Positions 8,612 to 23,188 of a DNA stretch of 38,276 nucleotides are shown here, piece after piece. The stretch is from Dehalococcoidia bacterium (GTDB lineage: Bacteria; Chloroflexota; Dehalococcoidia; Dehalococcoidales; RBG-16-60-22): contig JBGPRB010000003.1 of assembly GCA_041489355.1 (NCBI GenBank), positions 1 to 38,276 on the forward strand. Direction: 5' to 3'. The position numbers were made by a program, and so were the translations under genes. The notes beneath the pieces were generated by a model. That model saw only the letters and a list, made by a program, of their open reading frames with translations, ran no database searches and was not told the origin of the DNA. Within the stretch, counting starts at the first letter, position 1. Every line of letters starts with the position of its first letter.

Positions 8612-9958
8612 ATGAAAGGCTATAAAGAACTGCTGGATTTCTATTTCGGACAGCAGTGGGAAGGCCGGGGGAGGCGGAACGAAAGGCGCCTGACATTTAA
8701 CTATGCCAAAGTATTTGTCGAGAAAATTACATCATATTTAATGGGAGGCATCAGCTTTGACGTCGTCCCATCCGGAGATACGGACAAGGAGAGGGAAAGC
8801 GCCAGAAGGGCGGAGGCCGCCATTTATAGAGTCTACGATCAGAGCCACCTGGAGCAACTCGACCTCGAGACGGAAACAGACTGCGCGGTGCTGGGTGACG
8901 GCTGCTATAAAGTTATCTGGGATGCGGTGGAGAAGAGGGTCAGGGTGACCGCTCCCGATGTCCAGGGTATATATGTATGGTGTTCCGGTGATGATACCTC
9001 AAGGATATGGAGGATAGCTTCCCGGTACAGGCTGTCCGCCGAAGAGGTGGAAAATATTTACGGCGTGAAACCCAAGAATAAGACAGCGGTGATAGTGGAG
9101 CTATGGACAGACCATGACTTCGAGCTGTATCTGGATAATGCTTTGCTGGAAGCTAAGCCAAATCCTTACGGATTTATTCCATTTGTCGTTTTCCCCAATC
9201 TTCGCGAACCGAAGAAGTTCTGGGGAGCCTCCGATTTGCCCCAGATAATGGAGAGCCAGCGAGAGCTGAACCGCGCCATGAGCCAGCTATCGCGCATACT
9301 GGAGCTGTCCGGGAACCCCATCGCCGTCCTGGAGAACGTGGAGGAGTCCGAGGATATCGCCATCAGGCCGGGGGCGGTATGGAATATCCCGGAGGATGCC
9401 AAAGCCTATCTGCTCGACCTGCTGCAGGGGGGCGGCGTAAATCTCCATATCAACTACATTGACCTGATATACCGCGCCCTGCACGATTTATCCGAGAGCC
9501 CGAGGTCTGCCTTCGGCGGTATGGAAAGGAACCTGTCCGGGGTAGCCCTTGAGATTGAGCTCCAGCCGTTGCTGCAGAAGGTCAGGAGAAAGAGGATTAT
9601 CAGAACAGCCGCCTATAACCGGCGTAATGAGATGATACTCAGCCTTCTGGAGAAATACGGAGGTGAGAATTTCGGTCCTTCAGCCGAAGGACATACGCGA
9701 GTTATCTGGGGGACGATACTGCCCAGGGACATGGAGACAAGAGTGAACAGCGAACAGGTCATGGTGCAGAACGGAATACACTCCCGGAGAACGGCCATGG
9801 GGGAGGTGGGGGTGAGGGACCCCGATTACGAATTCCAGCGGTGGCTGGAGGAGAGGGAGTCCATTCTTAAGATGAACAGAGAGCTTAACGCTAAATCCGC
9901 CAGGAGCGGAGCGAGAGAGAGTGCTTTACCGTACCGGGCGGAAGGCGTTGAGGAGTAA
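8612..9958 (+). CDS. Phage portal protein (SPP1 gp6-like); an upstream in-frame ATG at 8564 is cut off by TAA at 8582
   Basis: DFY.G.QW, LTFNYAKVFVEK..SYL, NPYGFIPFVVFPN, SGVAL motifs; about 450 aa; position before scaffold and capsid. Confidence 0.85.
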   Translation: MKGYKELLDFYFGQQWEGRGRRNERRLTFNYAKVFVEKITSYLMGGISFDVVPSGDTDKERESARRAEAAIYRVYDQSHLEQLDLETETDCAVLGDGCYKVIWDAVEKRVRVTAPDVQGIYVWCSGDDTSRIWRIASRYRLSAEEVENIYGVKPKNKTAVIVELWTDHDFELYLDNALLEAKPNPYGFIPFVVFPNLREPKKFWGASDLPQIMESQRELNRAMSQLSRILELSGNPIAVLENVEESEDIAIRPGAVWNIPEDAKAYLLDLLQGGGVNLHINYIDLIYRALHDLSESPRSAFGGMERNLSGVALEIELQPLLQKVRRKRIIRTAAYNRRNEMILSLLEKYGGENFGPSAEGHTRVIWGTILPRDMETRVNSEQVMVQNGIHSRRTAMGEVGVRDPDYEFQRWLEERESILKMNRELNAKSARSGARESALPYRAEGVEE

Positions 9959-9979
9959 TGAGCAGGAGGCAAGACTTTT

Positions 9980-10468
9980 ATGGAAAATGAACAGGAAAAG
10001 GTCGATGAGGTGGAGACTAACGGCAGCGAAATTGACAGTCTTAAGCTTGAGAAAGAGTCACTTGCACGTGAGCTTAAGTCCAGAGACGACGCAATCGCCA
10101 AACTGGAGCAGGCGCTGACCGGTAAGGACAGCGAGGTGACGGCCATGAAGCAGGCTCTGGATGATACCACGCAGAAGCTGAAAGATATGGGCGAGGTTCT
10201 ACCCAAAGCGGTCGCCGCCTATAAGGAAATCGTGGCCCAGGCGAACCCCGGCATCCTGGCCGAGATGATAAACGGGGACACAATCGAAGGAATAAACGAG
10301 TCCCTGAAGAATGCCCGGGCTCTCGTGGAAAGGGTCAGGCAGGAAGTGGGGGCGGAAGCTGCCAGGGTAAGGGTGCCGGGTGGCGCCCCGCAGAGGACAC
10401 CGCTGGACATGTCGGCCCTATCGCCACGGGAAAAGATTCAGTACGCCCTGGGGGGTTCGGCGTCCTGA
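9980..10468 (+). CDS. Probable capsid scaffolding protein
   Basis: Acidic coiled coil between portal and capsid genes; short C-terminal helix LSPREKIQYAL; SD AGGAGG. Confidence 0.65.
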   Translation: MENEQEKVDEVETNGSEIDSLKLEKESLARELKSRDDAIAKLEQALTGKDSEVTAMKQALDDTTQKLKDMGEVLPKAVAAYKEIVAQANPGILAEMINGDTIEGINESLKNARALVERVRQEVGAEAARVRVPGGAPQRTPLDMSALSPREKIQYALGGSAS

Positions 10469-10570
10469 TGAGGGGTGGTGGCGGGTGTGAGGTTACTGCG
10501 TCCACCTGAGGCGGACTGGCAGTAATCATCTGTAGAATCAGAAAAATATTATAAGTGAGGTAAAAGAAAA

Positions 10571-11491
10571 ATGGCTTTAACTTTAGCAGAAGCATCCAAA
10601 CTATCTAACGATATACTGATGCAGGGAGTGGTGGAGACCATCGTGAAGGACTCGCCGGTTCTCCAGAAGCTGCCCTTTGTCGAAATCGTGGGCAACGGTC
10701 TGACTTATAACCGGGAAAACACCCTGCCCAGTATCGATTTCTATGACGTGGGCGATACATGGACAGAATCGACGCCGACTTTCACACAGGTAACGGCCAA
10801 CCTGAAAATCATGGGCGGCGATGCCGATGTGGACAACTTCCTCAAGGCTACCCGCAACAATGTCCAGGACCTGGTGGCGGCCGTCATCGAGCTGAAGGCC
10901 AAGGCGCTCCAGCAAAAATTCGAGGACACCTTTATCTACGGCGATAGTTCCGTCAACGCCAAGCAGTATGACGGGCTGAGGAAGCTGATAAATACCGGCG
11001 TGGCGGGCAGCCAGGTGATAGCGATGGGGGCTACCGGCGCCACTTTGACCCTGGCCAAGCTGGACGAGCTGATTGACGCCGTAAGGGGCGGCAAGCCCGA
11101 TATGCTGCTGATGAGCCGGCGTTCCCGGCGCAAGATGAATGCCTTGGTCAGGGCGGCCGGTGGCATGATTGAGACCAACCAGGATAAATGGGGCAACTTC
11201 ATCCAGCTCTGGGACGGTGTACCCATCGGCGTGAACGACTGGATTCTGGACACGCATGTCCTCAGCGGCAGCGTGGAAACGGCTACCACCGGCGGCACCT
11301 GTTCCACCATATACGCTGTGCAGCTGGGGGAGGGGGCCCTCTGCGGCCTGACCAGCCCCGGCTACCTGCAGGCTGAGCCCATCGGCTCACTGGAGACCAA
11401 GGACGCCTCCAGGACCAGGGTGAAGTGGTATGTCTCCCTGGCGCTGTTCAGCTCAATCAAGGCAGCGGCCCTTATCGGCGTCCAGGACTAA
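10571..11491 (+). CDS. Phage major capsid protein (HK97 fold, epsilon15 gp7/BPP-1-like)
   Basis: ALTLAEA.KL...GVVE.I...SP.L..LPF..I.GN...YNRE..LP, DVDNF, FIYGD.....YDGL motifs; 306 aa with no delta domain. Confidence 0.88.
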   Translation: MALTLAEASKLSNDILMQGVVETIVKDSPVLQKLPFVEIVGNGLTYNRENTLPSIDFYDVGDTWTESTPTFTQVTANLKIMGGDADVDNFLKATRNNVQDLVAAVIELKAKALQQKFEDTFIYGDSSVNAKQYDGLRKLINTGVAGSQVIAMGATGATLTLAKLDELIDAVRGGKPDMLLMSRRSRRKMNALVRAAGGMIETNQDKWGNFIQLWDGVPIGVNDWILDTHVLSGSVETATTGGTCSTIYAVQLGEGALCGLTSPGYLQAEPIGSLETKDASRTRVKWYVSLALFSSIKAAALIGVQD

Positions 11492-11512
11492 TACTTGACA
11501 TAAAATATGATT

Positions 11513-11541
11513 AGGGGGTCTCGATTCTATCGGGGCCCCCT
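11513..11541 (+). terminator. Stem-loop after the capsid gene (attenuator or mRNA stabiliser)
   Basis: AGGGGGTCTCGAT-TCT-ATCGGGGCCCCCT, 13-bp stem with two G-U pairs and no long U tract. Confidence 0.5.
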
Positions 11542-11554
11542 TGAGGAGGAAGAA

Positions 11555-12088
11555 ATGGTTCACCAAGAGAATTCAACACGGATGGAAAGAAGAGAATCAG
11601 CGAGATGGCTATGCCGGTTCCAGCTCAGAAAGTACCGGGAGAACATTGACCTGTACCGGGGCCGCGAAGACAACTTTCACCGTCTTTTTAAGCCTTACGA
11701 GGTTATCGAGGGGGAGGGGAACTGCTTGCTTAACACGGGCATCGACGAGATGTGGGACCTGATTGCGGGCGACTCGGCCAATCACTTTAACAACGCCAGC
11801 TCTCAAATCGGCGTCGGCGATAGCAACACGGCGGCCAGTCCGTCCCAGACGGACTTACAGGCAGCCACCAATAAGACCTACAAGAGTATGGATACCGGCT
11901 ATCCCACATCCACCAGCCAGAAGGCAACCTTCAAGGCCAGCTTTGGTTCCGATGACGCCAATTACGCCTGGAACGAGTGGGTGGTCAAGCAGGCGACCAG
12001 CGCCAAGTGCCTGAACCGCAAGGTGGAAAGCCTCGGCACGAAAAGCGGCGGCACCTGGACGCTGGAAGTAAGCATCACTCTATCGTGA
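11555..12088 (+). CDS. Putative virion structural protein
   Basis: N.LLNTG..., IGVGDSNTAASPSQTDL, F..SFGSDDANYAWNE, LNRKV...GTK resemble phage tail/baseplate-associated proteins; ATG 11555 after GAGGAGG. Confidence 0.6.
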   Translation: MVHQENSTRMERRESARWLCRFQLRKYRENIDLYRGREDNFHRLFKPYEVIEGEGNCLLNTGIDEMWDLIAGDSANHFNNASSQIGVGDSNTAASPSQTDLQAATNKTYKSMDTGYPTSTSQKATFKASFGSDDANYAWNEWVVKQATSAKCLNRKVESLGTKSGGTWTLEVSITLS

Positions 12089-12130
12089 TGATTCATTACG
12101 GGGATTCATTACGAGAGATTGGAGACGGCA

Positions 12131-14101
12131 GTGGCGGAGATAGAAAAGGTAACCGATCCGACTAAAATGGTCACCGACCCCGTAGTGCTTGACGTGTTAG
12201 CGAAGCAGAAGATAGATAAAGATTACGTCCTTCTGCTGCAGGATTACGGCAAGCGTATCAAAGGTGTCAGCTCACCCTATGCCAGGTTTTACCGTGACCT
12301 GAAGTCCGGAAAGGGGCTGATGGTTGTCTCCGGACTGCCGATGGTTGACGCCTACGGGTTCGGGCATGAGTTGCAGTGGACGGATAAGAACGGCGTCATC
12401 GAGAACGGCAACAATATCTTCCACAGCGCTATCGATAAAGGTGCGGTACGCCTGATTGCCCTCAGCGACCAGCCAAACGGAGCGAAAAAGGACGACGAGG
12501 TAAACTTTCATCCGCAGCTATTCATTAGTGGTGTGGAGATTCTGCCTTTGTCGGATATGCCCAAGTTACTGGAGACCGACTCCATCAATGAGAACTACCA
12601 TTACAATGTCCTTGAATGGGACTTTGGAGTATGTCTGCGCAGGGTCAGACTAATTGAGGGACGTTTTCTCGGTTCATGGGTGTTCTTGACCAACCCTAAA
12701 GGCGATGTCCTTATCAAGTATAATCAGTCTGGCAAACTTAAGTTGCGACTCCAGTATGCTAGAGACGAAGATACAGAATTTGTACCGAAGGAGTTTTTTT
12801 ACGAGGCCGAGGCATATCCCCTCACTATCTCGGATAACCTTACATTCTATCCTGACGCTGACCCTGAGACTTCTTCTGTTGATGGGAGAGTACAGCAAGC
12901 CTCCACAAATATTGCCTGGGGCACTCTTGTGGGTGCTGCGGGTTCCCAGGCTTACCCTTCTGAGGCTTCCAGCGATATACGATTTTTAGCTGGCTCGACA
13001 ACTGACCTCTGGGACCGTATTTATCGTCTCATTACTCTTTTTGATACCAGCAACCTGCCCGATACTGCCAGCATATCTGCCGCTACACTTTCCCTGCATG
13101 GTAAGGTGGGTAAAACGGACGGATGTTTAGCAACTCCGACTGTTAATGTATATTCGTCTAATCCTGCCAACAATAATAACTTGGTAGCAGCAGACTACGC
13201 TACTCTAGGCACAACCGCCTTTTGTGATTCTCCAATTGCGTATGCCGATTGGGTTGAGGGTGGAACTGCGAATATTTACTACAATGACTTTGCACTCAAT
13301 GCGTCAGGTATTGCGGCCATAAGCACAATTGGAGTGTCCAAGTTTGGTTTCCGCTTCAACTATGACGCAACCAGTACCGCACCTAATTGGGTATCAGTAG
13401 GTTCAACCCTCATATCAGTTTATACGACAGAGAAAGGTGCAGGGTTCCAGCCCAAACTGGTGGTGACTTATAGCTCTACCATCGAGAAAATCTCATCGGA
13501 AACCGGCTCGGGGGCTGAGGTGATAACATCGGGCAATCCCATTGTCGTGACGAGCGGCGCGGAGGCAGGTTCCGGGTTAGAATCTCTAGGAAGCCGTGAC
13601 CTGGGGCAAATCGAAACAGGTTCCGGGTTAGAATCTTTAGGAAGCCGTGATCTGGGGCAAATAGAGACAGGTTCCGGGTTAGAATCTCTGGAAAGCCGTG
13701 ATCTGGGGCAAACCGAGGCAGGTTCCGGGTTAGAATCTCTAGGAAGCCGTGACCTGGGGCAAATCGAAACAGGTTCCGGGTTAGAATCTGTCGGGAGCCG
13801 TGATTTTGGGCAAACCGAAGCAGGGTCAGGGCTTGATATTTCCTCTCTTTTGGCGGCATTTACAGGATATGACATTGGTTCAGGCATGGAAGCAGCTCTT
13901 AAAATTGCTGCTTTCATCTCAGGCGATGGGGGGGTCGGCTCAGAACTCAGCTGGATGCTGAAAGAAGCCCTGGCGGGTGACAGAGGCGGTGGTTACGATG
14001 CCCTGAAGGCCCTGATAAAGGCAGCGGGTTCGGGCTCTGATATGAGATTAACCATCCACCAGGGCCAGGTGGCCAGACCTAACAAGGAGGTAGATTTATG
14101 A
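12131..14101 (+). CDS. Large mosaic virion protein (fibre/adhesin-like) with central DNRLRE-like domain and C-terminal 17-aa repeats
   Basis: GTG 12131 after GGAG (ORF open from 12119); LFDTSNLPDTASISAATLSL...PKLVVTY; repeats GSGLESLGSRDLGQIET; ATGA overlap with next gene. Confidence 0.6.
   Translation: MAEIEKVTDPTKMVTDPVVLDVLAKQKIDKDYVLLLQDYGKRIKGVSSPYARFYRDLKSGKGLMVVSGLPMVDAYGFGHELQWTDKNGVIENGNNIFHSAIDKGAVRLIALSDQPNGAKKDDEVNFHPQLFISGVEILPLSDMPKLLETDSINENYHYNVLEWDFGVCLRRVRLIEGRFLGSWVFLTNPKGDVLIKYNQSGKLKLRLQYARDEDTEFVPKEFFYEAEAYPLTISDNLTFYPDADPETSSVDGRVQQASTNIAWGTLVGAAGSQAYPSEASSDIRFLAGSTTDLWDRIYRLITLFDTSNLPDTASISAATLSLHGKVGKTDGCLATPTVNVYSSNPANNNNLVAADYATLGTTAFCDSPIAYADWVEGGTANIYYNDFALNASGIAAISTIGVSKFGFRFNYDATSTAPNWVSVGSTLISVYTTEKGAGFQPKLVVTYSSTIEKISSETGSGAEVITSGNPIVVTSGAEAGSGLESLGSRDLGQIETGSGLESLGSRDLGQIETGSGLESLESRDLGQTEAGSGLESLGSRDLGQIETGSGLESVGSRDFGQTEAGSGLDISSLLAAFTGYDIGSGMEAALKIAAFISGDGGVGSELSWMLKEALAGDRGGGYDALKALIKAAGSGSDMRLTIHQGQVARPNKEVDL
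13566..13834 (+). repeat. In-frame 51-bp tandem repeat, 5 full copies plus a degenerate sixth
   Basis: Units start at 13566, 13617, 13668, 13719, 13770, 13821; units 1 and 4 are identical. Confidence 0.95.
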
Positions 14102-14730
14102 ATTTAACCGAGATGATATCCCTGGTCAGGAGTGACCTGCACGATGAAGCCAGCGGCAATTATCGCTGGTCGGACGCCGAGCTCACCAGGCACATCAACC
14201 GGGCGGTGGCGGAGCTTTCCGAGGGCCTGCCCCTGCCGGCTAAAGCTACCCTGCCCACGGCGGCCGGTTCGAGAGAACTCGATATCTCTGGCCTATCTGA
14301 CCGGATAATGGTTGCCGCCGTGGAGTATCCGGTGGGGTCCAGCCCGCCAGATTATCAGCAGTTTTCCATCTGGGGCGACATGCTGACTATCGTGAGCGGC
14401 AGCCTGCCCGAAGGCTCTAACTGCTATGTTTATTACGGCGTCCGGCATACCCTGGATGACGAGGGTTCGACAATCCCGGTTAAGTACGAGGATTTGGTCG
14501 CCAGCGGGGCCTGCGGTTATGCCGCCATCGAGTGGGCAGCCTATGCTATCAACCGGGTCAATGTGGGGGGTACGGTAACGCCCAGGGAGTTCCTCGACTG
14601 GGGAAACCAGAAACTCAAAGATTTCCGGCAGGAGTTGAGACGGCTGGGGAGGCGAAATCGTATCAGGATAAGCTCTCTTTACAGCCTCTATAATCACGCC
14701 GCCTCCACGTCAATTGACTACGGCCCTTAA
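14098..14730 (+). CDS. Probable head-tail adaptor / head-completion protein
   Basis: MNL.EM...VR..L.D......RWSDAEL..HINRA N-terminus typical of phage adaptor proteins. Confidence 0.65.
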   Translation: MNLTEMISLVRSDLHDEASGNYRWSDAELTRHINRAVAELSEGLPLPAKATLPTAAGSRELDISGLSDRIMVAAVEYPVGSSPPDYQQFSIWGDMLTIVSGSLPEGSNCYVYYGVRHTLDDEGSTIPVKYEDLVASGACGYAAIEWAAYAINRVNVGGTVTPREFLDWGNQKLKDFRQELRRLGRRNRIRISSLYSLYNHAASTSIDYGP

Positions 14731-14754
14731 TTTACCGCGATACGGAGTAAGAAG

Positions 14755-16758
14755 ATGCGTACATTGACGTCGACATTACTGGCCGCCCAGAAGCAGGAAG
14801 CTTCGATTCCCTGTGCTAAGATTGAAGCCGTAAGCAAGATTACCGGCGTGGTCAGGTACGATTGGTCCAGACTTTATGATGGCTCCGAACCTGACTACTT
14901 TCATGCCCTGACGATGCCCGGCGATGGCTCCCTGGTCAGGGCCAGGATAACACTGCCCGCCGATTCCAGGAAGCTCTACCGCCAGCGGGTGGCTAACCCC
15001 GGCCCGTGGAGCGACTTCAGCCAGTGGACCTATACCAGCCAGTATAATGCCGTCGTGGCGGCGGCGGCTTCCCTGGGGGCTGAAGTCTCGATATTCTGGA
15101 TAAACACCAGCCGGGAAATCAGGCGCATCAAAAGCACGGACTACGGTGTGAACTGGGGCAGCCCCGAGCTTATCGATTATTCACCGACAACCGCTATTTA
15201 CGGCCTGGCGGCCGCTTATAAGCCCGGCGGCAACCTGGCAATCTTTTTCGCTGACCAGTCGACCCTGTATGTCAAGAAGAATATCAGCGGGGCGTGGCAG
15301 ACGAAGGCGGCCTGGGATAAGGCGACCGGTAGTCTATCGGGTATCGCCGGCGCCTACGATGGCGACTGGAATCTGCTGGTCACCGGCAAAGATACGGCGG
15401 GAAACTACAAGCTATGGAGCCTGGTATATGGGGACGGCGGGGATGTCGCCATCGGTAGCTGGTCAGTCCTGAAAGAGCTTGCCTCGGCCCCTTCCGGCGG
15501 CGATTTCGAGTATAAACAGCCGTTCCTCGATAGGACGGACGTTTATCGCTGTTTCTTTATCGAGAAGTTCGCCGGCACCGAGGCTTACAGCCGTCCTTTC
15601 CGGTCTCAGGCTGTTCCCGGTGCGCATTTTGTCGATGGCCTGTGGCGGGAGCCGGCGCCGTTCAATCTATCTTCGGATTATGGTCTGGCCATGGCTCATT
15701 ACGGCGATTATGGCTGGTTTTCCAGTCCTGATAGCGTCTGGAGAGCTTCACTGACCGCCAGCAGTCTTGACCTGACGGCGGACGTCATCAGCGTCAGGCA
15801 GGAACTGGGTAAGACTTCGGGCGGTTTAACCGTGGAGTTGAGGAATGATGACGGGAGGTATGCATCTCCGGGGCAGGGTGACCTGGCGGCCATGGACATC
15901 GGCTGCCAGCTGGAGTTCAGTCCCGGCTGCATAACTGCTAATGGCAGCGAGTACAGTAGCGGACTGAGCTTTTACCTCGAATCTCTGGAGCACACCAGCG
16001 CCGGCGGCAGGGCCAGTCTAATTCTTCACGCCAGGGACGGCTGGGGGGCGCTGGGTGACTGGAAAGCCAGACACCAGTTCCGCTGGAACAAGACCTCTGA
16101 CGACATGTGCGTAAAGGATATTATCGCGGTTATTCTGGCCAGGGTGGGTCTGAAGCTGGAGGTAAAATCACAGTCATCGACGATAACGGGGTTTTACCCG
16201 GATTTCACGTTAAATCCAGATGACAACGGCAGGGCGGTGATAATTAAGCTGCTGTCTTTCGTTCCCGATGTATTATTTATCGAAGGTAATAAGGCTTATA
16301 TCGTCAACCCGCTGTCTTCCGATGGTACGGAATACAGTTATGGCGTCGAGCACCAGATTAAAGAGGGCAGGTACGGGCGGGGAGCCTTGGGAATTAACAG
16401 GGTACAGGTCGAGGGGTATGATACCGGCACCAGCCATTTAATACTGGTGAATAGCTTCGCCTGGAGTGAGATAGACCGACTTTACGACCGGCTGTACCAG
16501 ATTGAGGATAGGAATTTAAATAGCGTGGACGAGGCCCAGCAGCGCGGGCAGGCTCATTTAAGGCAGATGGAGATAGAAGCGACTGAGGGCATGATTATAG
16601 TTCCGGTGAACTGCGGGCAGCAGCTATATGACGTCATCGATGTGACCGATACGCGGGCCGGACTTGATGCGGTAAAGAAAAGAGTCCTGGGACTGGTCCT
16701 GGTTTATAATCCTCAGCGCGGCGAATACTTCCAGCGTCTGGAGCTGGGAGGGGTATAG
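14755..16758 (+). CDS. Putative tail tip / baseplate hub-like virion protein
   Basis: Beta-rich 667 aa with a BNR-like STDYGVNW motif; C-terminal INRVQVEG...EA..R....L......G...VP.N...QLYDVI.V resembles hub/Tal folds (inference). Confidence 0.5.
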   Translation: MRTLTSTLLAAQKQEASIPCAKIEAVSKITGVVRYDWSRLYDGSEPDYFHALTMPGDGSLVRARITLPADSRKLYRQRVANPGPWSDFSQWTYTSQYNAVVAAAASLGAEVSIFWINTSREIRRIKSTDYGVNWGSPELIDYSPTTAIYGLAAAYKPGGNLAIFFADQSTLYVKKNISGAWQTKAAWDKATGSLSGIAGAYDGDWNLLVTGKDTAGNYKLWSLVYGDGGDVAIGSWSVLKELASAPSGGDFEYKQPFLDRTDVYRCFFIEKFAGTEAYSRPFRSQAVPGAHFVDGLWREPAPFNLSSDYGLAMAHYGDYGWFSSPDSVWRASLTASSLDLTADVISVRQELGKTSGGLTVELRNDDGRYASPGQGDLAAMDIGCQLEFSPGCITANGSEYSSGLSFYLESLEHTSAGGRASLILHARDGWGALGDWKARHQFRWNKTSDDMCVKDIIAVILARVGLKLEVKSQSSTITGFYPDFTLNPDDNGRAVIIKLLSFVPDVLFIEGNKAYIVNPLSSDGTEYSYGVEHQIKEGRYGRGALGINRVQVEGYDTGTSHLILVNSFAWSEIDRLYDRLYQIEDRNLNSVDEAQQRGQAHLRQMEIEATEGMIIVPVNCGQQLYDVIDVTDTRAGLDAVKKRVLGLVLVYNPQRGEYFQRLELGGV

Positions 16759-16783
16759 GCATTGTCTGAAGGGGGCACGGGAA

Positions 16784-16996
16784 ATGAGGTTGAAGAAAGC
16801 GGAGCTAAGGAGTTTTAATTCCGGCAATTACACGGCTACTGTCCGACTTGCCAGCAGCTATAAGGTCTACCTGGAGGATGTAGCTGTGGCCAGGAATCTG
16901 ACGTCAGCGGAAATGATTACAGGACGGAAGGTTGCCGTGATATTTTTTGATGAGAATAGCCCCAAGGAAGCGGTGGTGGTGGCGGTCTATACTTAA
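16784..16996 (+). CDS. Small protein, possible OB-fold spike/tip component
   Basis: ATVRL......LEDVAV......GRKVAVIFFDENSPKEAVVVAVY resembles gp5/gpV N-terminal OB folds; last gene of the cluster. Confidence 0.5.
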   Translation: MRLKKAELRSFNSGNYTATVRLASSYKVYLEDVAVARNLTSAEMITGRKVAVIFFDENSPKEAVVVAVYT

Positions 16997-17021: not shown

Positions 17022-18095
17022 TTACCATCGTGCCATGGGATGGCGCTGGCGGGCGCAACCCGGCGGGTAGGTTTTATCGGGGGCACGGTAGGACGCTGGC
17101 TCTTCTGCCTCATCCGGTTTTTCGGCTTCAGTTACCGATTTCCTGGCGTGGATTACCAATTTTTCGGCTACGGGCACCAGTTTTTCAACCTTGTATGCCG
17201 GCTTTTCCGTTGCCGTTTTATATAAAGCCCGGTGGAACGGGGGTATCTTTGCCTCGTCCGGTTTTTCGGCTAGAGGCGCCGGCTTTTCTGTTGCCGGCGG
17301 CGTTTCTTTTATTAAAGTTATTGTTTCCTGCTTATGGCCTGCCTTAGTCATGTTCTCCATGAGGGCCGCCAGGACGCGATTTTGTTCGGCGGCGCCTTTC
17401 TTTAACTCATGAGATGCCTCGGCTAGACTCTGGACGGCACTGGTATGGCTGGCCAGGTGCTGGGCATATTCCGAAATGGCGGCAGAGAACTTACCCAGGG
17501 CCTGTTCCGTGGAGTCCATTTTCTTTTCCGTGGCTTCCATTTTGCGTGTCAGCACCCGGTTAGTACGTTTTTCTTCGTTAATGACCGGAGAAAATATCCC
17601 CCGGTGTATCAAGTTACTGCCCCGGCTTATTTCACCGCCATACAGGAAGAGAATGAGCAGGACCAGGGCGATAATAACGAATATCAGACCCTGCTTGCTC
17701 TGGAAGAACAGCAGGGGAAGACCGAGAAAAGGAATCTGGCTGCCGACGGTACCACGGATGTCCATCGGCCTGATGGTGAAAGGTTCTTCACCGGTATTAT
17801 CACCCTGGGTGCGGAAGCCCAATGATGGTGTGGTATTAACCTTTATCACCCTGTGGGCCACCACCGGCGGATAGTTGTAATATTCCCGAACCATCGGGGG
17901 GACATTATAGACGATGATATCGCCTACCCTGACATCACCGGGGTTCACGGGTTTAATCATAAGGAGGCCGCCGGAATGCAGTGTGGGTTCCATACTGGAG
18001 CCGAATATGGGAATGAAAGGCATCGTCCCTCTTACCGTGAGGAATCCCACGATGCAGGCTACAGTAACGAATACAAGTCCGATGGCGCGTTTCAT
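17022..18095 (-). CDS. Signal peptidase I, ER/SipW type, with long C-terminal coiled-coil and EKP-repeat tail
   Basis: GSSMEPT (Ser), VGDIIVY, VAHRVI (His), FRTQGDN; N-terminal and post-catalytic TM helices. Confidence 0.9.
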   Translation of the reverse strand: MKRAIGLVFVTVACIVGFLTVRGTMPFIPIFGSSMEPTLHSGGLLMIKPVNPGDVRVGDIIVYNVPPMVREYYNYPPVVAHRVIKVNTTPSLGFRTQGDNTGEEPFTIRPMDIRGTVGSQIPFLGLPLLFFQSKQGLIFVIIALVLLILFLYGGEISRGSNLIHRGIFSPVINEEKRTNRVLTRKMEATEKKMDSTEQALGKFSAAISEYAQHLASHTSAVQSLAEASHELKKGAAEQNRVLAALMENMTKAGHKQETITLIKETPPATEKPAPLAEKPDEAKIPPFHRALYKTATEKPAYKVEKLVPVAEKLVIHARKSVTEAEKPDEAEEPASYRAPDKTYPPGCARQRHPMARW

Positions 18096-18104
18096 GTGCT
18101 TATT

Positions 18105-19151
18105 TTACCTCTGCGTAACCTCGCAGTAAAATTCAGGGACTATACTCCATCCGGCTCCCCAATCGTCGGTGTTGTCAGAAACCAGCCGGTAGCTACCGCC
18201 AGCCAGTTCCATGGTGTATTTTTTAGCGGAACCGCCTTCAATATTAAAGGATATCACGCCATTTTCAATACTCAACATCTGGTAATCGGGAGTCTTTTTG
18301 GCTTCCAACGAGTTAGCCATATAGAGTTCCATGTTAAGGTAGTTATACGCCTTGAGCAGGTCGGCGGTATTGGTCATGTAAATTCTCACCTGAAGGTCAC
18401 CGGTATAGTCGGTGTGGGGGGTGATATCATACAGGTTACCCTGCGGTAATTCGCCCTGGGTGGTGGTATGTTTATAATTGACTTCCACATAAACCTGGGT
18501 GCAGAGAGCCGGCTTATTTTTATTATGACCTTCGATAGTAACGCCAGCCTGCAAATCATTAATGTCTTCCTGGGTCCAGGATTTGTCGGTAGCGGGGTTA
18601 TTGGCGCACTGCCAGGACTCAGTAACGAAGGGGGTATCAGATAGTGTTATGTTCGGGCCTTCGTAGACCTGGTCGTTCGTTTTGATAGCGGCCATGGCAG
18701 TGACGTCGTAATCACCGCCGGAAGCGAACCGGAAGTAAACGGTAATATTTTCTATTGTATCTTCGCTGCCCGCTCCCGTAAAATTACTCAAGTTATACAG
18801 GTCTCTTTGCCAGCCGCCAGAATCTTCGGTAGATACATAGGTGTCACCATCGTCAGCGGGCTGGTCGTCCACCTTATCCCAGTGTTCATCCGATGCGGGG
18901 TACTGAGCGGACAACTCGGTATCATCACCGGGAGCGTTAGGCACAAGAATTTCGGAATTGTACTCGCCGCTGGGCAGAAGGCTGTTCCAGTTCGGCTGGT
19001 TGGCCGATGGCTCGTAGGTTGTCCAGCCGTCATCAGCAAGGGTGGCATTCAGTGTTGTCACCGAGTTATTGGAAAAGGTGTAGGCGAAAGTGCCGGTGGT
19101 CAACACCAGGGCGAGTATTAATATTCCGATAAAGATTAATTTTTTCTTCAT
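18105..19151 (-). CDS. Secreted TasA/CalY-like protein with SipW-type signal peptide and an inserted domain
   Basis: MKKKLIF...LVLTTGTFA|YTF signal; paralogous to 19273..20049 (YTGDL, NG, PE..CEV.QR); ATG at 19151 (ORF open from 19178). Confidence 0.65.
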   Translation of the reverse strand: MKKKLIFIGILILALVLTTGTFAYTFSNNSVTTLNATLADDGWTTYEPSANQPNWNSLLPSGEYNSEILVPNAPGDDTELSAQYPASDEHWDKVDDQPADDGDTYVSTEDSGGWQRDLYNLSNFTGAGSEDTIENITVYFRFASGGDYDVTAMAAIKTNDQVYEGPNITLSDTPFVTESWQCANNPATDKSWTQEDINDLQAGVTIEGHNKNKPALCTQVYVEVNYKHTTTQGELPQGNLYDITPHTDYTGDLQVRIYMTNTADLLKAYNYLNMELYMANSLEAKKTPDYQMLSIENGVISFNIEGGSAKKYTMELAGGSYRLVSDNTDDWGAGWSIVPEFYCEVTQR

Positions 19152-19272
19152 TTTTTTATGTTCTTCAGCGCTTATCAAGTAATGGGATGATGTCTTTTAA
19201 GGCCGGTAGGGTAGAGGAGTATGAGTGTCAGTCTACCCTACCGCGTTGTATTTATACTATACTACCAGGTTT

Positions 19273-20049
19273 TTACCTCTGGGCGACTTCGCAGAAGAGC
19301 TCCGGAGAGCCGCTGCCTGTCCAGGTTCCCGGCCAGACATGGGTGATAAAGAAACCTCTCTTGACTCTTACAGAACTGTTGTCAGCCGCGCCGCCGGGGT
19401 ACATGCTGACGGAGCCGTTGTCCAGCGTGAGCATGACCCAGTCAGTAGCCGCGTCTGCTACACTGTCTTCATTAATATCCAGGATGCTGCCGTCGGCGGC
19501 ATTCATGGTGAGTTGCAGGGAAAGCGCGCGATAGCGCTTTACCAGCTCGTCGGCGTTGCCGAGTGAGACCGTAACTACCAGGTCGCCGGTGTAGCCGGAG
19601 GTGGCGGTGTTAATGTTGAATATCGGTGTGCCACCGATGGCGGCAGTGATAGCGCCCTTGTAGAAGCCCCAGCCGGACCAGCTGAGCGAGCCGACGCCGG
19701 CGGTGTCGACGCTAACATCGGCAAAGTTCGACTCGGCGATGGTGCCGGTCAGAGTTGTGCTGGCGTTGATGAAACCGAAGGCGAATACGCCGCCGGTAGC
19801 AGCCAGCGCCAGGAGCAGAGCGCCGATCAGGTAAGCTCCCTTGCCTCTGGAAACGGCGAAGGTCAGCTTATCATCGTCATTGAGCACGGTATCATGTTCA
19901 GCGTTCGCCTTGACTCTGGAGCCGTTCAGCTTTGCCTGGGCTTTATCCGGGATGCCAAACTCAGCTTTGAACTGCTCACGAGCCGCTCTAACTGTCTGCC
20001 CGGCTAGATTAGTTATTTCAAACTGGTCACTATATTTTATTTCAACCAT
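19273..20049 (-). CDS. TasA-like secreted protein with N-terminal ubiquitin-like domain before an internal SipW-type signal peptide
   Basis: aa 1-66 G.TV......FGIP....A.LNG......D..L..DD.L.F; aa 67-90 RGK...LLLALAATGGVFA|FGF; C-terminus PELFCEVAQR. Confidence 0.65.
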   Translation of the reverse strand: MVEIKYSDQFEITNLAGQTVRAAREQFKAEFGIPDKAQAKLNGSRVKANAEHDTVLNDDDKLTFAVSRGKGAYLIGALLLALAATGGVFAFGFINASTTLTGTIAESNFADVSVDTAGVGSLSWSGWGFYKGAITAAIGGTPIFNINTATSGYTGDLVVTVSLGNADELVKRYRALSLQLTMNAADGSILDINEDSVADAATDWVMLTLDNGSVSMYPGGAADNSSVRVKRGFFITHVWPGTWTGSGSPELFCEVAQR

Positions 20050-20214: not shown

Positions 20215-21027
20215 TCAGGTCAGTTCACCGATAAAGGACTTTAAGCGTTCCATCAAATGTTCTTTAAAATCGTTGAATTCTGCCTTGGTTACATATTCGA
20301 CAAACTTACCGTCTTTTTTAATCGAGCCGCGGATTATTGAAGGCAGGCTTCTTTGAGCAGCTTCAATCACGGTACGGGCCTGGTCATTGGATACCAGCTT
20401 GTTCAAGATTATTCTAAGAGTTCGCCTGACGGTCTCTTCATTTATTTCCAGTTTGGCGGTGATTTGCTCGATAGTATTGTCGGCGGCGATGCTGGTAAGA
20501 ATCTGTGTCTCTCTGGGAGCGAGGTTGGCCAGCAGGTTATCGAACTGTTCATTCAGAGCGGCCAGGTCTTCAAACTCGGTAAGGACCATGGAAGCCAGCC
20601 CCGGCGTGAGTAGTTCTTCCATGATGGGGTAACTGCCCTGAGCGACCACCCTGATAATATCGAGCAGATGTTCAGGCTCAATATCTTTCGTCAGGCAGGC
20701 GCTGGCGCCGCTCTTGATGGCCGCGAAGATTCTTTCCGGCTCTTTTTTCTCCATGGTCAGAATCACGGATACCAGGGGCAGGTTCCGTTTGATGCGGCGG
20801 GTTATCTCGGGGCCATTGGCTTTGGGGTCCTGCATGCTCAGGATAGCGATATTGGGCGGATTGGCTTCGATGAGGGAAAAACCCTCTTCATTACTGGTTG
20901 TTTCGCCGGTAACTTCGAAATCGTCCTCACCCGAGAGGATGAAGTGTATTCCTTCCCGAAAGAGAACTTGCGGGTCCGAAAGAAATACCTTTACTTTTTC
21001 CATCTTTATATTTCTCTGCTGGCTCAT
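20215..21027 (-). CDS. NarL/LuxR-like response regulator with atypical receiver
   Basis: KVFLSDPQVLFREGI...PNIAILSMQ...AIKSGASACLTKD...LAPRETQIL HTH; alternative start at 21003. Confidence 0.85.
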   Translation of the reverse strand: MSQQRNIKMEKVKVFLSDPQVLFREGIHFILSGEDDFEVTGETTSNEEGFSLIEANPPNIAILSMQDPKANGPEITRRIKRNLPLVSVILTMEKKEPERIFAAIKSGASACLTKDIEPEHLLDIIRVVAQGSYPIMEELLTPGLASMVLTEFEDLAALNEQFDNLLANLAPRETQILTSIAADNTIEQITAKLEINEETVRRTLRIILNKLVSNDQARTVIEAAQRSLPSIIRGSIKKDGKFVEYVTKAEFNDFKEHLMERLKSFIGELT

Positions 21028-21221: not shown

Positions 21222-21920
21222 TTAAGTACCGATCGGCTTGATGAATTTATAACCGATGCCGTGCTCGGTGACGATGATGTTGGGCACCTCGGTATTATCT
21301 TCCAGTTTCTGTCTGAGATGCTGTATATGCACGCGGAGCAGGTCCCTGGCGTCGACATAGGTGTCTCCCCAGACTTTGGAAAGCAGGCTCTCGTGTGAGA
21401 GAATACGTCCTTCGTTCCTGATGAGATGGTAAAGTAGTTTCCTTTCGGTGGAGGTAAGCTTCACCGACTTACCACTTAAAAGGACTTCATTGCGGCTGAA
21501 ATCAACCGAAAGCTTGCCGCTGGTAAAGGGTCGTTCTTCATTGGTTACATTCAATCCCTGGGCGCGGCGCAGGACGGCCTGTACCCGGGCAATCAGCTCG
21601 ATGTGGCTGAAGGGCTTGGTAATATAGTCGTCGGCACCCAGTTCCAGGCCTTTGGCGACATCAGTGTCCTCACCTCTAACTGTCAGCATGAGTACCGGCA
21701 CTTCGGAGAAACGGCGTATCTCACGCAGTACCTGGTAGCCGTCTATATCGGGTAAGCCGATATCCAGTATGACGACATCGGGGCTCTCCGTCTCAACGAG
21801 CTCCACGCCTTTATGGCCATTGGCAGCAGATACTACTGTAGTACCGCTCCAACGCAGCTGGAAGCAAAGGGAGACAACCTCAATAATCCCGGGGTCGTCC
21901 TCTATAACCAGAACTTTCAT
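21222..21920 (-). CDS. OmpR/PhoB family response regulator
   Basis: VLVIEDD, PDVVILDIGLPD, GLELGADDYITKPF, LRVHIQHLRQKL, G.GY. Confidence 0.93.
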   Translation of the reverse strand: MKVLVIEDDPGIIEVVSLCFQLRWSGTTVVSAANGHKGVELVETESPDVVILDIGLPDIDGYQVLREIRRFSEVPVLMLTVRGEDTDVAKGLELGADDYITKPFSHIELIARVQAVLRRAQGLNVTNEERPFTSGKLSVDFSRNEVLLSGKSVKLTSTERKLLYHLIRNEGRILSHESLLSKVWGDTYVDARDLLRVHIQHLRQKLEDNTEVPNIIVTEHGIGYKFIKPIGT

Positions 21921-21934
21921 ATTGCTCCTTATTT

Positions 21935-22648
21935 TCAGGTGGAATGTATCGTGGCCTGGCGCGGTAGAAAGAAAGAGAAAGTACTGCCTTTTCCAGGCTC
22001 GCTATCTACCCAGATTCTGCCCCCGTGTAGCTCCACTACCTGCTTGGATAAAGCAAGCCCCAGGCCCAATCCCGGGTGGCGTTGTCTATCGGAGCTAAGG
22101 CGACTGTAAGGTTTGAATAACCTGGATTGTTGTTCCTTGGCGATACCGATGCCGTCATCCTGCACCTCTATTACGAGTCCGGTGTCCTGCTTCCGGACTC
22201 TTACAGAGATGTTACCCCCTTCCGGGGTGAACTTGGTGGCATTGTTCATCAGGTTAAGCAATACCTGCTCCAGTCTCTGCCCGTCACCCCGGATGATGGG
22301 GAGGGAATCGGGCACCTCGGTCTTCAGCTTCTGTCCTTTACCGCGGAGTAAAGGGCTGATTTGCATACATGTTCCGAGGACGAGCGACTTGATATCTACC
22401 GGTTCAAGTTGTAGTTGCAGTTTGCCGCTGCCTGTCTTGACAATGTCCAGGAGTTCGGCCAGCCTGGTCTCAAGGGTATTGGCGTTATGGATAATGGTTT
22501 GAATAAGCTTCTGATGAGACTCGTCGGCGGTGGTTTGAAGTTCCTCAGCCAGTAAACCAGCCGCGGCGATAATAGATGTCAGGGGCGTCTTAAGCTCATG
22601 GCTGAGGGTATCGATAAATCTCAGCCATTCCTCTTCTTTGGTTTCCAT
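21935..22648 (-). CDS. Histidine kinase (HisKA + HATPase only, no sensor or TM domain)
   Basis: SHELKTPL H-box from residue 16, NLMNNATKF, DDGIGI, GLGLGL, GKGSTF. Confidence 0.92.
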   Translation of the reverse strand: METKEEEWLRFIDTLSHELKTPLTSIIAAAGLLAEELQTTADESHQKLIQTIIHNANTLETRLAELLDIVKTGSGKLQLQLEPVDIKSLVLGTCMQISPLLRGKGQKLKTEVPDSLPIIRGDGQRLEQVLLNLMNNATKFTPEGGNISVRVRKQDTGLVIEVQDDGIGIAKEQQSRLFKPYSRLSSDRQRHPGLGLGLALSKQVVELHGGRIWVDSEPGKGSTFSFFLPRQATIHST

Positions 22649-22801: not shown

Positions 22802-23188
22802 TTATTTCGTCATTCCCTTGGCGATACTTTTCAGGAGGCTGAGGACGCCGACGACGGCACGCTGCACCTCAGGAGGTTCCTCGGCCAGCATTCTGGCTAC
22901 ATAGGGGTCCAACTGCCGGCCGGAATAGCGTGTGCCGCTTTCTTCGGCTACGCCGGAGGTTTGCGGTGAAAGGAATCCGGCCAGGGTGAACAATTCATCC
23001 TCGTCAAAACCCAGCGGTTTAGCGATTTTACGCAAAATCCGTGCCGATGGAAAGCGCTCGCCCCTTTCTATGCGTCCCAGATGTGACGAAGATACGCCCG
23101 ATTCCTTGGAGAGTTCCTGGAGAGTGAGTGGAACTGTAACCCTCTGTTGTTTAAGTATTCTGCCCAGATCATTATTATTATAGCTCAT
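22802..23188 (-). CDS. XRE-family HTH transcriptional regulator (SinR/cI-like)
   Basis: LGRILKQQR....LTLQELSKESGVSSSHLGRIERGERFPS...L.KIA..L. Confidence 0.9.
   Translation of the reverse strand: MSYNNNDLGRILKQQRVTVPLTLQELSKESGVSSSHLGRIERGERFPSARILRKIAKPLGFDEDELFTLAGFLSPQTSGVAEESGTRYSGRQLDPYVARMLAEEPPEVQRAVVGVLSLLKSIAKGMTK

Follow-up and report, generated by a model that had tools for sequence, protein, structure and literature searches.

We examined a stretch of 38,276 nucleotides from a Dehalococcoidia bacterium of the order Dehalococcoidales (the window, meaning the whole of the DNA analysed; contig JBGPRB010000003.1 of assembly GCA_041489355.1), and within it a gene for a protein of 258 amino acids in which a ubiquitin-like (Ubl) domain stands ahead of a predicted internal signal peptide and a fibre-subunit domain. 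The gene and the parts of its product are placed as follows:

19273..20049, minus strand: gene for the Ubl-signal peptide-fibre subunit precursor, 258 amino acids, ATG start, stop codon at 19273-19275
19852..20049, minus strand: residues 1-66, ThiS/MoaD-like beta-grasp (Ubl) domain without a C-terminal Gly-Gly, from models and structure matches
19780..19851, minus strand: residues 67-90, predicted SipW-type internal signal peptide with a putative cut after Ala90, from conservation of its c-region
19729..19779, minus strand: residues 91-~107, N-terminal extension of the mature protein and likely donor strand, from structure alignments (predicted local distance difference test score, pLDDT, ~70-77)
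19276..19728, minus strand: residues 108-258, acidic jelly-roll core, TasA-superfamily/CanA-like, from VIA and Foldseek comparisons

Only 6 more codons are open upstream of the ATG (open frame of 264 amino acids), and a purine-rich, Shine-Dalgarno-like stretch lies just 5' of it. Within codons 1-90 only one other start codon occurs, a GTG at codon 55 that lies within the Ubl domain; the linker to the hydrophobic segment has neither ATG nor GTG, as an earlier, sequence-only reading of this DNA had stated. That reading also had the hydrophobic segment ending in GGVFA, followed by FGF, at residue 90, and Ala90 and Phe91 do lie within ...TGGVFA/FGF (the stroke marks the putative cut). Its description was accurate except for the strand, the gene being on the minus strand, and for the quoted start of the domain, AGQTV, which is found at residue 16; the domain begins at Met1 (MVEIKY...). 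An AlphaFold2 model of the whole protein, made from an alignment of 88 sequences, had a mean pLDDT of 89. Residues 2-65 were modelled as strand-strand-helix-strand-strand-strand, residues 71-84 as a single helix and residues 111-257 as a beta-sandwich; residues 85-110 of this monomer model were without secondary structure and of reduced confidence. As modelled, the protein is made of four parts, i.e., a beta-grasp Ubl domain, a signal-peptide-like segment, an unstructured N-terminal extension and an acidic jelly-roll.

The Ubl domain was assigned by structure. The first 70 residues, modelled alone from 37 genomic loci, reached a pLDDT of 85, and VIA aligned 62-67 of the 70 residues with MoaD (6jc0, 1fm0) and ThiS (3cwi) at Z 8.2-8.3 and a root-mean-square deviation of 2.0-2.5 A; all of the best 50 VIA matches listed for this model were ubiquitin-like folds. 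Foldseek gave E values of 4.8e-4 to 1.6e-3 (ThiS 3cwi, 4.8e-4; MoaD 1nvi, 7.1e-4). The beta-grasp fold proposed earlier for residues 1-66 was thus predicted, with ThiS and MoaD as the top structure matches. Sequence comparison found nothing significant when the Ubl profile was run against PDB sequences (best E 0.66), and Pfam ThiS (PF02597) had no match in the 258-residue protein at E<=1; the automatic name "molybdopterin converting factor small subunit" was attached by the Joint Genome Institute (JGI) to 17 of the 120 listed homologues. The end of the domain (...TFAVSRGKG) ran on into the membrane segment in 37 of 37 aligned loci, where a Gly-Gly and a free C-terminus were both absent. Because it lacks these two, the domain is a ThiS/MoaD-like fold that can neither carry sulfur nor be conjugated as a modifier. 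Family scans of the locus found no MoaE, ThiF/MoeB or E1-like gene; the neighbours were regulators, fibre genes, a peptidase gene and a phage-like module.

Over the 37 loci the Ubl domain was gap-free with a mean column identity of 79%, and the charged surface positions E3, E11, R24, E51, D58 and D60 were invariant. The median ratio of nonsynonymous to synonymous substitution rates (dN/dS) for codons 1-66 was 0.15, taken over those 301 of 666 locus pairs in which synonymous change was unsaturated. Mean pairwise identity was 0.72 for the Ubl domain, 0.71 for the signal peptide and 0.60 for the mature part. Language-model look-alikes of residues 1-68 were ThiS-like proteins of ~70 amino acids, many of them from phage records (score 0.83, a lead only), a provenance that is curious beside the phage-like module adjoining the operon. 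For the whole protein the look-alikes gave a weak lead to a PF12389 cluster (score 0.78), and every named cluster, for the whole protein and the Ubl part, scored <0.9 and is a lead only.

The segment that follows, residues 67-90, comprises a basic linker (SRGKG), a hydrophobic core at 72-84 (12-13 residues) and the c-region TGGVFA; it lies inside the protein rather than at its N-terminus, and no NCBIfam model matches. Among the 88 aligned sequences no stretch of the protein was better conserved than TGG[V/I]FA (majority frequency 0.94); the P1' residue after it varied (F/Y/A/S/T), and the next two, G-F, were invariant or nearly so. Relatives without a Ubl domain had the same c-region directly after a short basic N-terminus, i.e., as ordinary signal peptides. 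Since the hydrophobic core is of 12-13 residues and the modelled helix of 14 (71-84), the geometry on this model is that of a signal peptide rather than a long membrane anchor. The conserved c-region, its identity with the motif of ordinary signal peptides and the presence of a peptidase gene in the operon make SipW-type cleavage after Ala90 a well motivated prediction. The peptidase gene is:

17022..18095, minus strand: archaeal/endoplasmic-reticulum-type signal peptidase I (SipW-like; TIGR02228), two genes downstream of the Ubl-fibre gene

Its product matched TIGR02228 at E 4.3e-21 (75 bits, cut-off 52) and the Bacillus SipW model at 40 bits, under the cut-off of 190; the translation has SMEP, AHRV and GDN boxes, two membrane spans and a cytoplasmic tail of ~200 amino acids. 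The tail (residues ~156-357; 17022-17630, minus strand) is long and helical and passes into Pro/Glu/Lys-rich repeats; its first ~130 residues are conserved, in operons without the Ubl domain as well, and gave weak, sub-threshold matches to the methyl-accepting chemotaxis protein (MCP) signalling domain.

For the full model the top VIA matches were CanA 7uii (Z 11.3), Hyper2 9bab (Z 11.2) and CanX 9h8b (Z 11.1), with 139-144 residues aligned, and Foldseek matched CanX, CanA, Hyper2 and AbpA at E 1e-5 to 8.5e-4 (AbpA 7ueg, 8.5e-4). The filament form of CanA (7uii) aligned over 143 residues, model 89-258 to chain 2-182, whereas monomeric CanA (9dlo) aligned from model residue 107 only. Because of this difference, by which the CanA donor strand is placed opposite residues ~89-106, residues 91-~107 are likely the donor strand in the modelled subunit. 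TasA itself was absent among the Foldseek and VIA matches listed, and when all PDB sequences were searched at E<=10 with the profile of the 88 full sequences, the sole matches were 3 hexosaminidase chains, which are unrelated (best E 0.31). By its modelled fold the protein is thus a member of the TasA superfamily, nearest the CanA branch, with no detectable sequence link. The earlier expectation of a TasA-superfamily jelly-roll was borne out for residues 89-258, and fell short in that the nearest folds were CanA/CanX, Hyper2 and AbpA rather than TasA and that PF12389 was unmatched. The mature part is acidic (isoelectric point 4.3) and contains at residues 191-196 a conserved Asp/Asn-rich loop, D-I-N-E-[D/S]-G, which may be calcium-binding; its C-terminal end, ...CEVAQR, is invariant.

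The fusion of these parts was followed through sequence collections and genomes. A word-indexed search returned 382 homologues at E<=1e-3, the best 120 of which covered 100% of the query and had exactly one Ubl domain each. The Ubl-only profile matched 405 proteins; the best 120 of these were all the same fusion of ~250 amino acids or fragments of it, and neither among them nor in the window genome was there a free-standing or differently fused copy of this domain. HMMER, run in full over 1.84 billion representatives, found 239 matches, and the best 150 divided into 75 with one Ubl domain, 72 with none, 2 with two (one of them a fragment of 115 amino acids) and 1 with three in tandem. The multiple domains stand ahead of the signal peptide in P0133 (392 amino acids, three in tandem) and P0135 (328 amino acids, two). 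Since the 120 listed homologues are full-length with one Ubl domain and dN/dS is low as given above, the fusion is real and under purifying selection, and is no chance open reading frame.

Its spread is narrow. Of 401 genomes sampled across the class, 4 had a match, three of these belonging to the family that includes the window genome, and the Ubl-only profile matched 0 of 400 other genomes sampled from the phylum; among the ~900 Chloroflexota genomes sampled the fusion was seen in one Dehalococcoidales family only. Within that family 60 of 110 genomes matched: 38 had at least one Ubl-fused gene, 19 had only small subunits beginning at the signal peptide and 3 were unclear (one contig end, two weak matches), leaving 50 with no match; this split was read from the listed matches, and a further 45 weaker matches lie outside them. 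Two high-scoring genomes at first counted as lacking the domain were artefacts, of a contig end in G468 and of a run of N in G408. The fusion was therefore kept, as the sequence-only reading supposed, in the best 120 homologues, and was absent from sister genera, which have syntenic small subunits without a Ubl domain; the refuting case named in that reading, orthologues that start at the signal peptide, thus applies in part.

On a maximum-likelihood tree built from 73 mature domains, 37 of them from proteins with the Ubl domain and 36 from proteins without it, Ubl presence required 26 changes, at least 19 of them forced by well-supported branches; the mean for shuffled labels was 24.6. Some proteins without the domain (e.g., P0240) keep its first strand and then jump to the signal peptide, an N-terminus such as an internal deletion would leave. 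The scatter may represent frequent loss, or exchange of mature parts between genes, and both fit. Within one genome, the pair L029/L031 was 97% identical in the Ubl domain, 92% in the signal peptide and 58% in the mature part; mosaic evolution by recombination of the mature part was considered for this pair and set aside, as the approximately unbiased (AU) test did not reject sisterhood (p 0.14). Two odd joinings could each be a deletion or an assembly artefact. In P0156 (283 amino acids) the Ubl domain and signal peptide are joined to the peptidase tail, and in L033 (8001-8735) the C-terminal half of a Ubl-fused gene is 69% identical to the larger paralogue described below, with the peptidase gene directly next. 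A more distant relative of the fibre domain, of 171 amino acids, with a different, ordinary signal peptide and without the conserved C-terminal end, is encoded in contig 41 of G000 (L004, 1330-1845), where it adjoins a stand-alone receiver-domain gene.

Gene order was compared over 38 related loci from Dehalococcoidales metagenome-assembled genomes. The order is a LuxR-type regulator, the Ubl-fibre gene, a larger paralogue without the Ubl domain and the archaeal-type peptidase, with the Ubl-fibre gene as the first gene of a conserved operon. Besides the genes already given, the window has:

18105..19178, minus strand: larger paralogue without a Ubl domain, 357 amino acids, with an ordinary signal peptide, an inserted middle region and the end ...CEVTQR
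19204..19243, minus strand: intercistronic RNA hairpin without a U-run, after the stop codon of the Ubl-fibre gene, from RNA folding and covariation
20215..21027, minus strand: LuxR/NarL-type response regulator (Response_reg and GerE), immediately 5' of the Ubl-fibre gene in 33 of the 38 loci compared
21222-21920, minus strand: OmpR-type response regulator, syntenic with the operon
21935-22648, minus strand: sensor-less histidine kinase, 237 amino acids, HisKA and HATPase only, without a sensor or membrane part, syntenic
22802-23188, minus strand: XRE regulator, syntenic with the operon

The Ubl-fibre gene, the 357-residue paralogue and the peptidase gene stood in this order in 26 of the 38 loci; one (L033) had the hybrid fibre gene with the peptidase gene directly next, six ended at a contig edge and agreed with the operon order so far as it was present, and five were lone second copies of the Ubl-fibre gene. 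The peptidase gene was conserved in 27 of the 38. Four of the five lone copies, all with upstream sequence, had no adjoining regulator, and one (L030) had a partial LuxR-like gene upstream. The paralogue begins directly with its signal peptide, as was noted earlier (basic and hydrophobic N-terminus, no Ubl domain); its C-terminal half is shared, with 37% identity to residues 144-258 of the Ubl-fibre protein, and no Pfam or NCBIfam family matched it above noise. It is likely a minor or tip subunit. No SLH- or LPXTG-type wall-anchor gene was seen in the operon by family scans.

The region of the hairpin forms long stems in most of 33 loci, and an alignment of 22 sequences gave 10 pairs with 91% of cells paired, compared with 27-52% in slid controls; 5 of the pairs had compensatory changes on both sides. 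In major pilin genes a hairpin favours expression of the leading gene, and by that analogy we read this one as a device that would lift first-gene expression over the remaining genes of the operon. The Ubl-fibre gene was always the first and smallest structural gene, and in operons with more than one small subunit (that of G405 among them) the Ubl-fused one came first. The window genome has two copies of the Ubl domain, both fused, and the second copy is unlinked. The position and small size of the gene, the conserved hairpin after it and the second genomic copy point to the Ubl-fused protein as the probable major subunit. A scan for promoter and terminator consensus sequences gave 5 terminator-like sites compared with 4.8 in shuffled sequence and 9 promoter-like sites compared with 4.6 (standard deviation 2.1), and none was used.

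Convergent to the operon is a podovirus-like structural module (8612-16996, plus strand) with an SPP1-type portal, an SU10-type major capsid protein and an adaptor; among the window open reading frames scanned there was neither a terminase nor an integrase. Its last large gene (14755-16758, 667 amino acids, no family) is convergent to the peptidase gene in 24 of the 38 loci and occurs also in sister genera without the Ubl domain, at 57-97% identity. The module looks like a vertically kept, phage-derived element beside the fibre operon, perhaps one of a gene-transfer-agent-like kind.

Four loci of sister genera (L044, L045, L046 and L049) had the same flanking genes, the same regulators and the same peptidase, including its cytoplasmic tail, and no Ubl domain. 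Alignments with their peptidases covered query residues 1-251 to 1-301 (52-58% identity). The structural genes of these loci encode two small proteins (179-197 amino acids, with ordinary signal peptides), one of 1011 and one of ~345 amino acids. The 1011-residue subunit of L044 (6290-9325, minus strand) has the family signal peptide and N- and C-terminal halves around a large repeat-rich insert, and matched no Pfam family. The peptidase tail and the C-terminal extension of the LuxR-type regulator were considered as partners specific to the Ubl domain and were rejected, both being present at 49-58% identity in these four loci. Since sister genera keep the operon, the peptidase and the regulators without it, the Ubl domain, on these sequences, is a lineage-variable accessory that would not belong to the core export and processing machinery.

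We put at about an even chance the proposal that the 258-residue protein is the precursor (pre-pro-form) of the major subunit of a SipW-processed, CanA-like surface fibre, in which the Ubl domain and signal peptide stay behind as a cytoplasmic pro-domain. The Ubl domain would fold in the cytoplasm, and the hydrophobic segment would then insert N-in/C-out through Sec, an orientation expected because positive charges lie on its N-side and acidic residues on its C-side. The dedicated peptidase would cut after Ala90, releasing a subunit of 168 amino acids, which would polymerise outside the cell by placing strand 91-~107 into its neighbour's groove, probably aided by calcium as in the CanA analogy; a stub of 90 residues, Ubl domain plus signal peptide, would remain at the cytoplasmic face. 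As to what the Ubl domain does, we favour, tentatively and at somewhat under even chance, a cytoplasmic docking pro-domain that would let a conserved partner, in the cytoplasm or at the membrane face, hold or stage the precursor. The strong purifying selection on its charged surface positions argues for a specific partner, and its restriction to the first subunit, together with its dispensability in sister genera, argues for a tuning role in staging or release. Placed where it is, the domain would make an internal signal-anchor out of what is otherwise a signal peptide, in the subunit produced in greatest abundance, and subunits able to polymerise would then be freed only through the dedicated peptidase.

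Several results weigh against this proposal. Nineteen of the 110 family genomes run the same operon with small subunits that all lack the Ubl domain, and the domain is scattered over the mature-domain tree as shuffled labels would be, so that it is dispensable and often lost or swapped, which weakens the case for a necessary function. No partner of the Ubl domain was found; the peptidase tail and the LuxR extension, being present in loci without the domain as well, do not co-vary with it. The whole protein matched 0 Pfam families at E<=1, including PF12389 (Peptidase_M73 / TasA-camelysin), and no NCBIfam model. Among the sequencing runs listed as containing the stretch there were 20 DNA runs (sediment, peat and wetland metagenomes) and no RNA runs.

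The layout is also that of a type II membrane protein, and the segment could have another fate: it might remain uncleaved, or be cleaved in some copies only, with the Ubl domain as a "stopper" holding the fibre base in a wall-less membrane while cleaved or Ubl-less copies build the shaft. According to the literature, wall anchors of the SLH or LPXTG kind are frequent in the TasA-like loci of bacteria, and none was seen in this operon; some operons (that of G405 too) hold a Ubl-fused and a Ubl-less small subunit together, and tandem double and triple Ubl forms occur. At most one Mur-ligase-domain match per genome was found in 38 of 41 family genomes, a weak hint of no murein, as these are matches and not copy numbers. 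Dehalococcoides itself is wall-less. Against this, no part of the protein is better conserved than the cleavage motif, which is identical to that in the ordinary signal peptides of relatives, and the window-type operon has one small subunit, first and with the hairpin after it, as would suit an abundant shaft subunit. Sister genera without the Ubl domain show no obvious replacement anchor, and its frequent loss is hard to square with an essential one; we consider a membrane anchor possible, and on the whole unlikely.

A stub made 1:1 with each exported subunit, as follows from the architecture, might instead be read as a signal: every cleavage would leave one Ubl stub, and we think it improbable, though worth stating, that the sensor-less kinase or the LuxR-type regulator reads it and so counts secretion. 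Equally improbable is the extension in which the token, membrane-bound or freed by intramembrane proteolysis, makes operon transcription track the number of subunits exported. The kinase and the OmpR- and LuxR-type regulators are syntenic with the operon, the last directly upstream of the Ubl-fibre gene in most loci, and the lone copy L030 has its partial LuxR-like gene; but the same regulators adjoin operons without the Ubl domain, and the other four lone copies have no regulator beside them. In an exploratory mirror-tree correlation of distances over 14 loci, which was not used as evidence, the partial r with the Ubl domain was 0.58 for the LuxR receiver, 0.38 for the kinase and 0.22 for the peptidase core; the highest value, 0.68, was that of the extracellular paralogue, so that these correlations may mirror locus-wide rates only. 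At the other extreme the domain could have no partner at all. Ubiquitin is fused to ribosomal proteins, and by that analogy the Ubl domain might be a passive cis tag, a fast-folding aid to solubility or against aggregation of a self-polymerising precursor, discarded with the signal peptide. Fusion only to the small, self-assembling and presumably most expressed subunit, dispensability in many lineages and the tandem copies would suit such a tag; that the domain is the best-conserved of the larger parts, with invariant charged surface residues, would be unexpected of it, and it is never found on the larger paralogues, whose export is presumably more difficult. We regard a passive tag as a decidedly poor prospect.

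The Ubl-fused precursor bears on two matters that are poorly understood, namely how self-assembling subunits are restrained before export and how fibres are attached to wall-less cells. TasA-superfamily fibres (TasA, bundling pili, cannulae) are emerging as a matrix system common to bacteria and archaea, and sister genera with the same operon and no Ubl domain are natural controls that make its role directly testable. Were the secretion counter true, the cell would measure fibre export directly, with a polyprotein-style internal signal peptide used for signalling and the ubiquitin fold as a non-covalent messenger. Surveys that filter for a predicted N-terminal signal peptide, as one published method does, may miss Ubl-fused fibre proteins. 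No account of a TasA-like protein or SipW substrate bearing a ubiquitin-like or beta-grasp domain was found in the literature searched, the supplementary tables of superfamily surveys lying outside the material covered; a Ubl domain ahead of an internal signal peptide on a fibre subunit is an arrangement previously undescribed and, as architecture, well supported.

Among known systems the nearest solved folds are CanA/CanX of Pyrodictium and Hyper2. Both sides are acidic, and the N-terminal strand of filament CanA aligns past the predicted cut; CanA/CanX are only 8-18% identical to the Ubl-fibre protein with no match at sequence level, and they come from archaeal hyperthermophiles and have an ordinary N-terminal signal peptide without a Ubl domain. 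The present protein would extend CanA-like folds to mesophilic sediment bacteria. CanA is reported to polymerise through its donor strand and calcium, with no need of a chaperone, and cannula proteins assemble in dependence on calcium into tubes of ~25 nm. Polymerisation by a donated N-terminal strand is described for CanA, AbpA, AbpX and TasA alike; in the published cannula work CanX homologues are given as confined to Pyrodictiaceae, with no dedicated peptidase nearby, and the CanX-like and AbpA families also fall outside PF12389.

With TasA-TapA-SipW of Bacillus subtilis and with AbpA/AbpX the operon shares its logic, i.e., a jelly-roll subunit, a larger accessory paralogue, an archaeal-type peptidase and regulators. 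According to the literature, a typical TasA-superfamily locus encodes a major subunit together with minor or tip subunits, regulators and a dedicated signal peptidase I, and AbpX is described as having an unusually long leader of 54 residues and a TIGR02228 peptidase next door. Unlike TasA and AbpX, here a folded domain of 66 residues precedes the signal peptide, the peptidase has its tail of ~200 amino acids, and no wall-anchor genes were seen.

For the Ubl domain itself ThiS and MoaD were the best structural matches of residues 1-70, yet here the chain runs into a membrane segment. EccD of type VII secretion is reported, in a study of EccD1, to have an N-terminal Ubl domain. YukD and EccD were absent among the best 50 Foldseek and VIA matches listed for the domain, and no family of the type VII secretion system was found among the window open reading frames scanned. 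YukD is described as a non-conjugated Ubl at the cytoplasmic face of type VII secretion and a structural adaptor there. In YukD and EccD, however, the Ubl is a component of the machine and no signal peptidase takes it off, whereas here it is part of the exported substrate. Sulfur transfer and type VII secretion are two bacterial contexts in which a ubiquitin fold serves unconjugated, and this would be a third.

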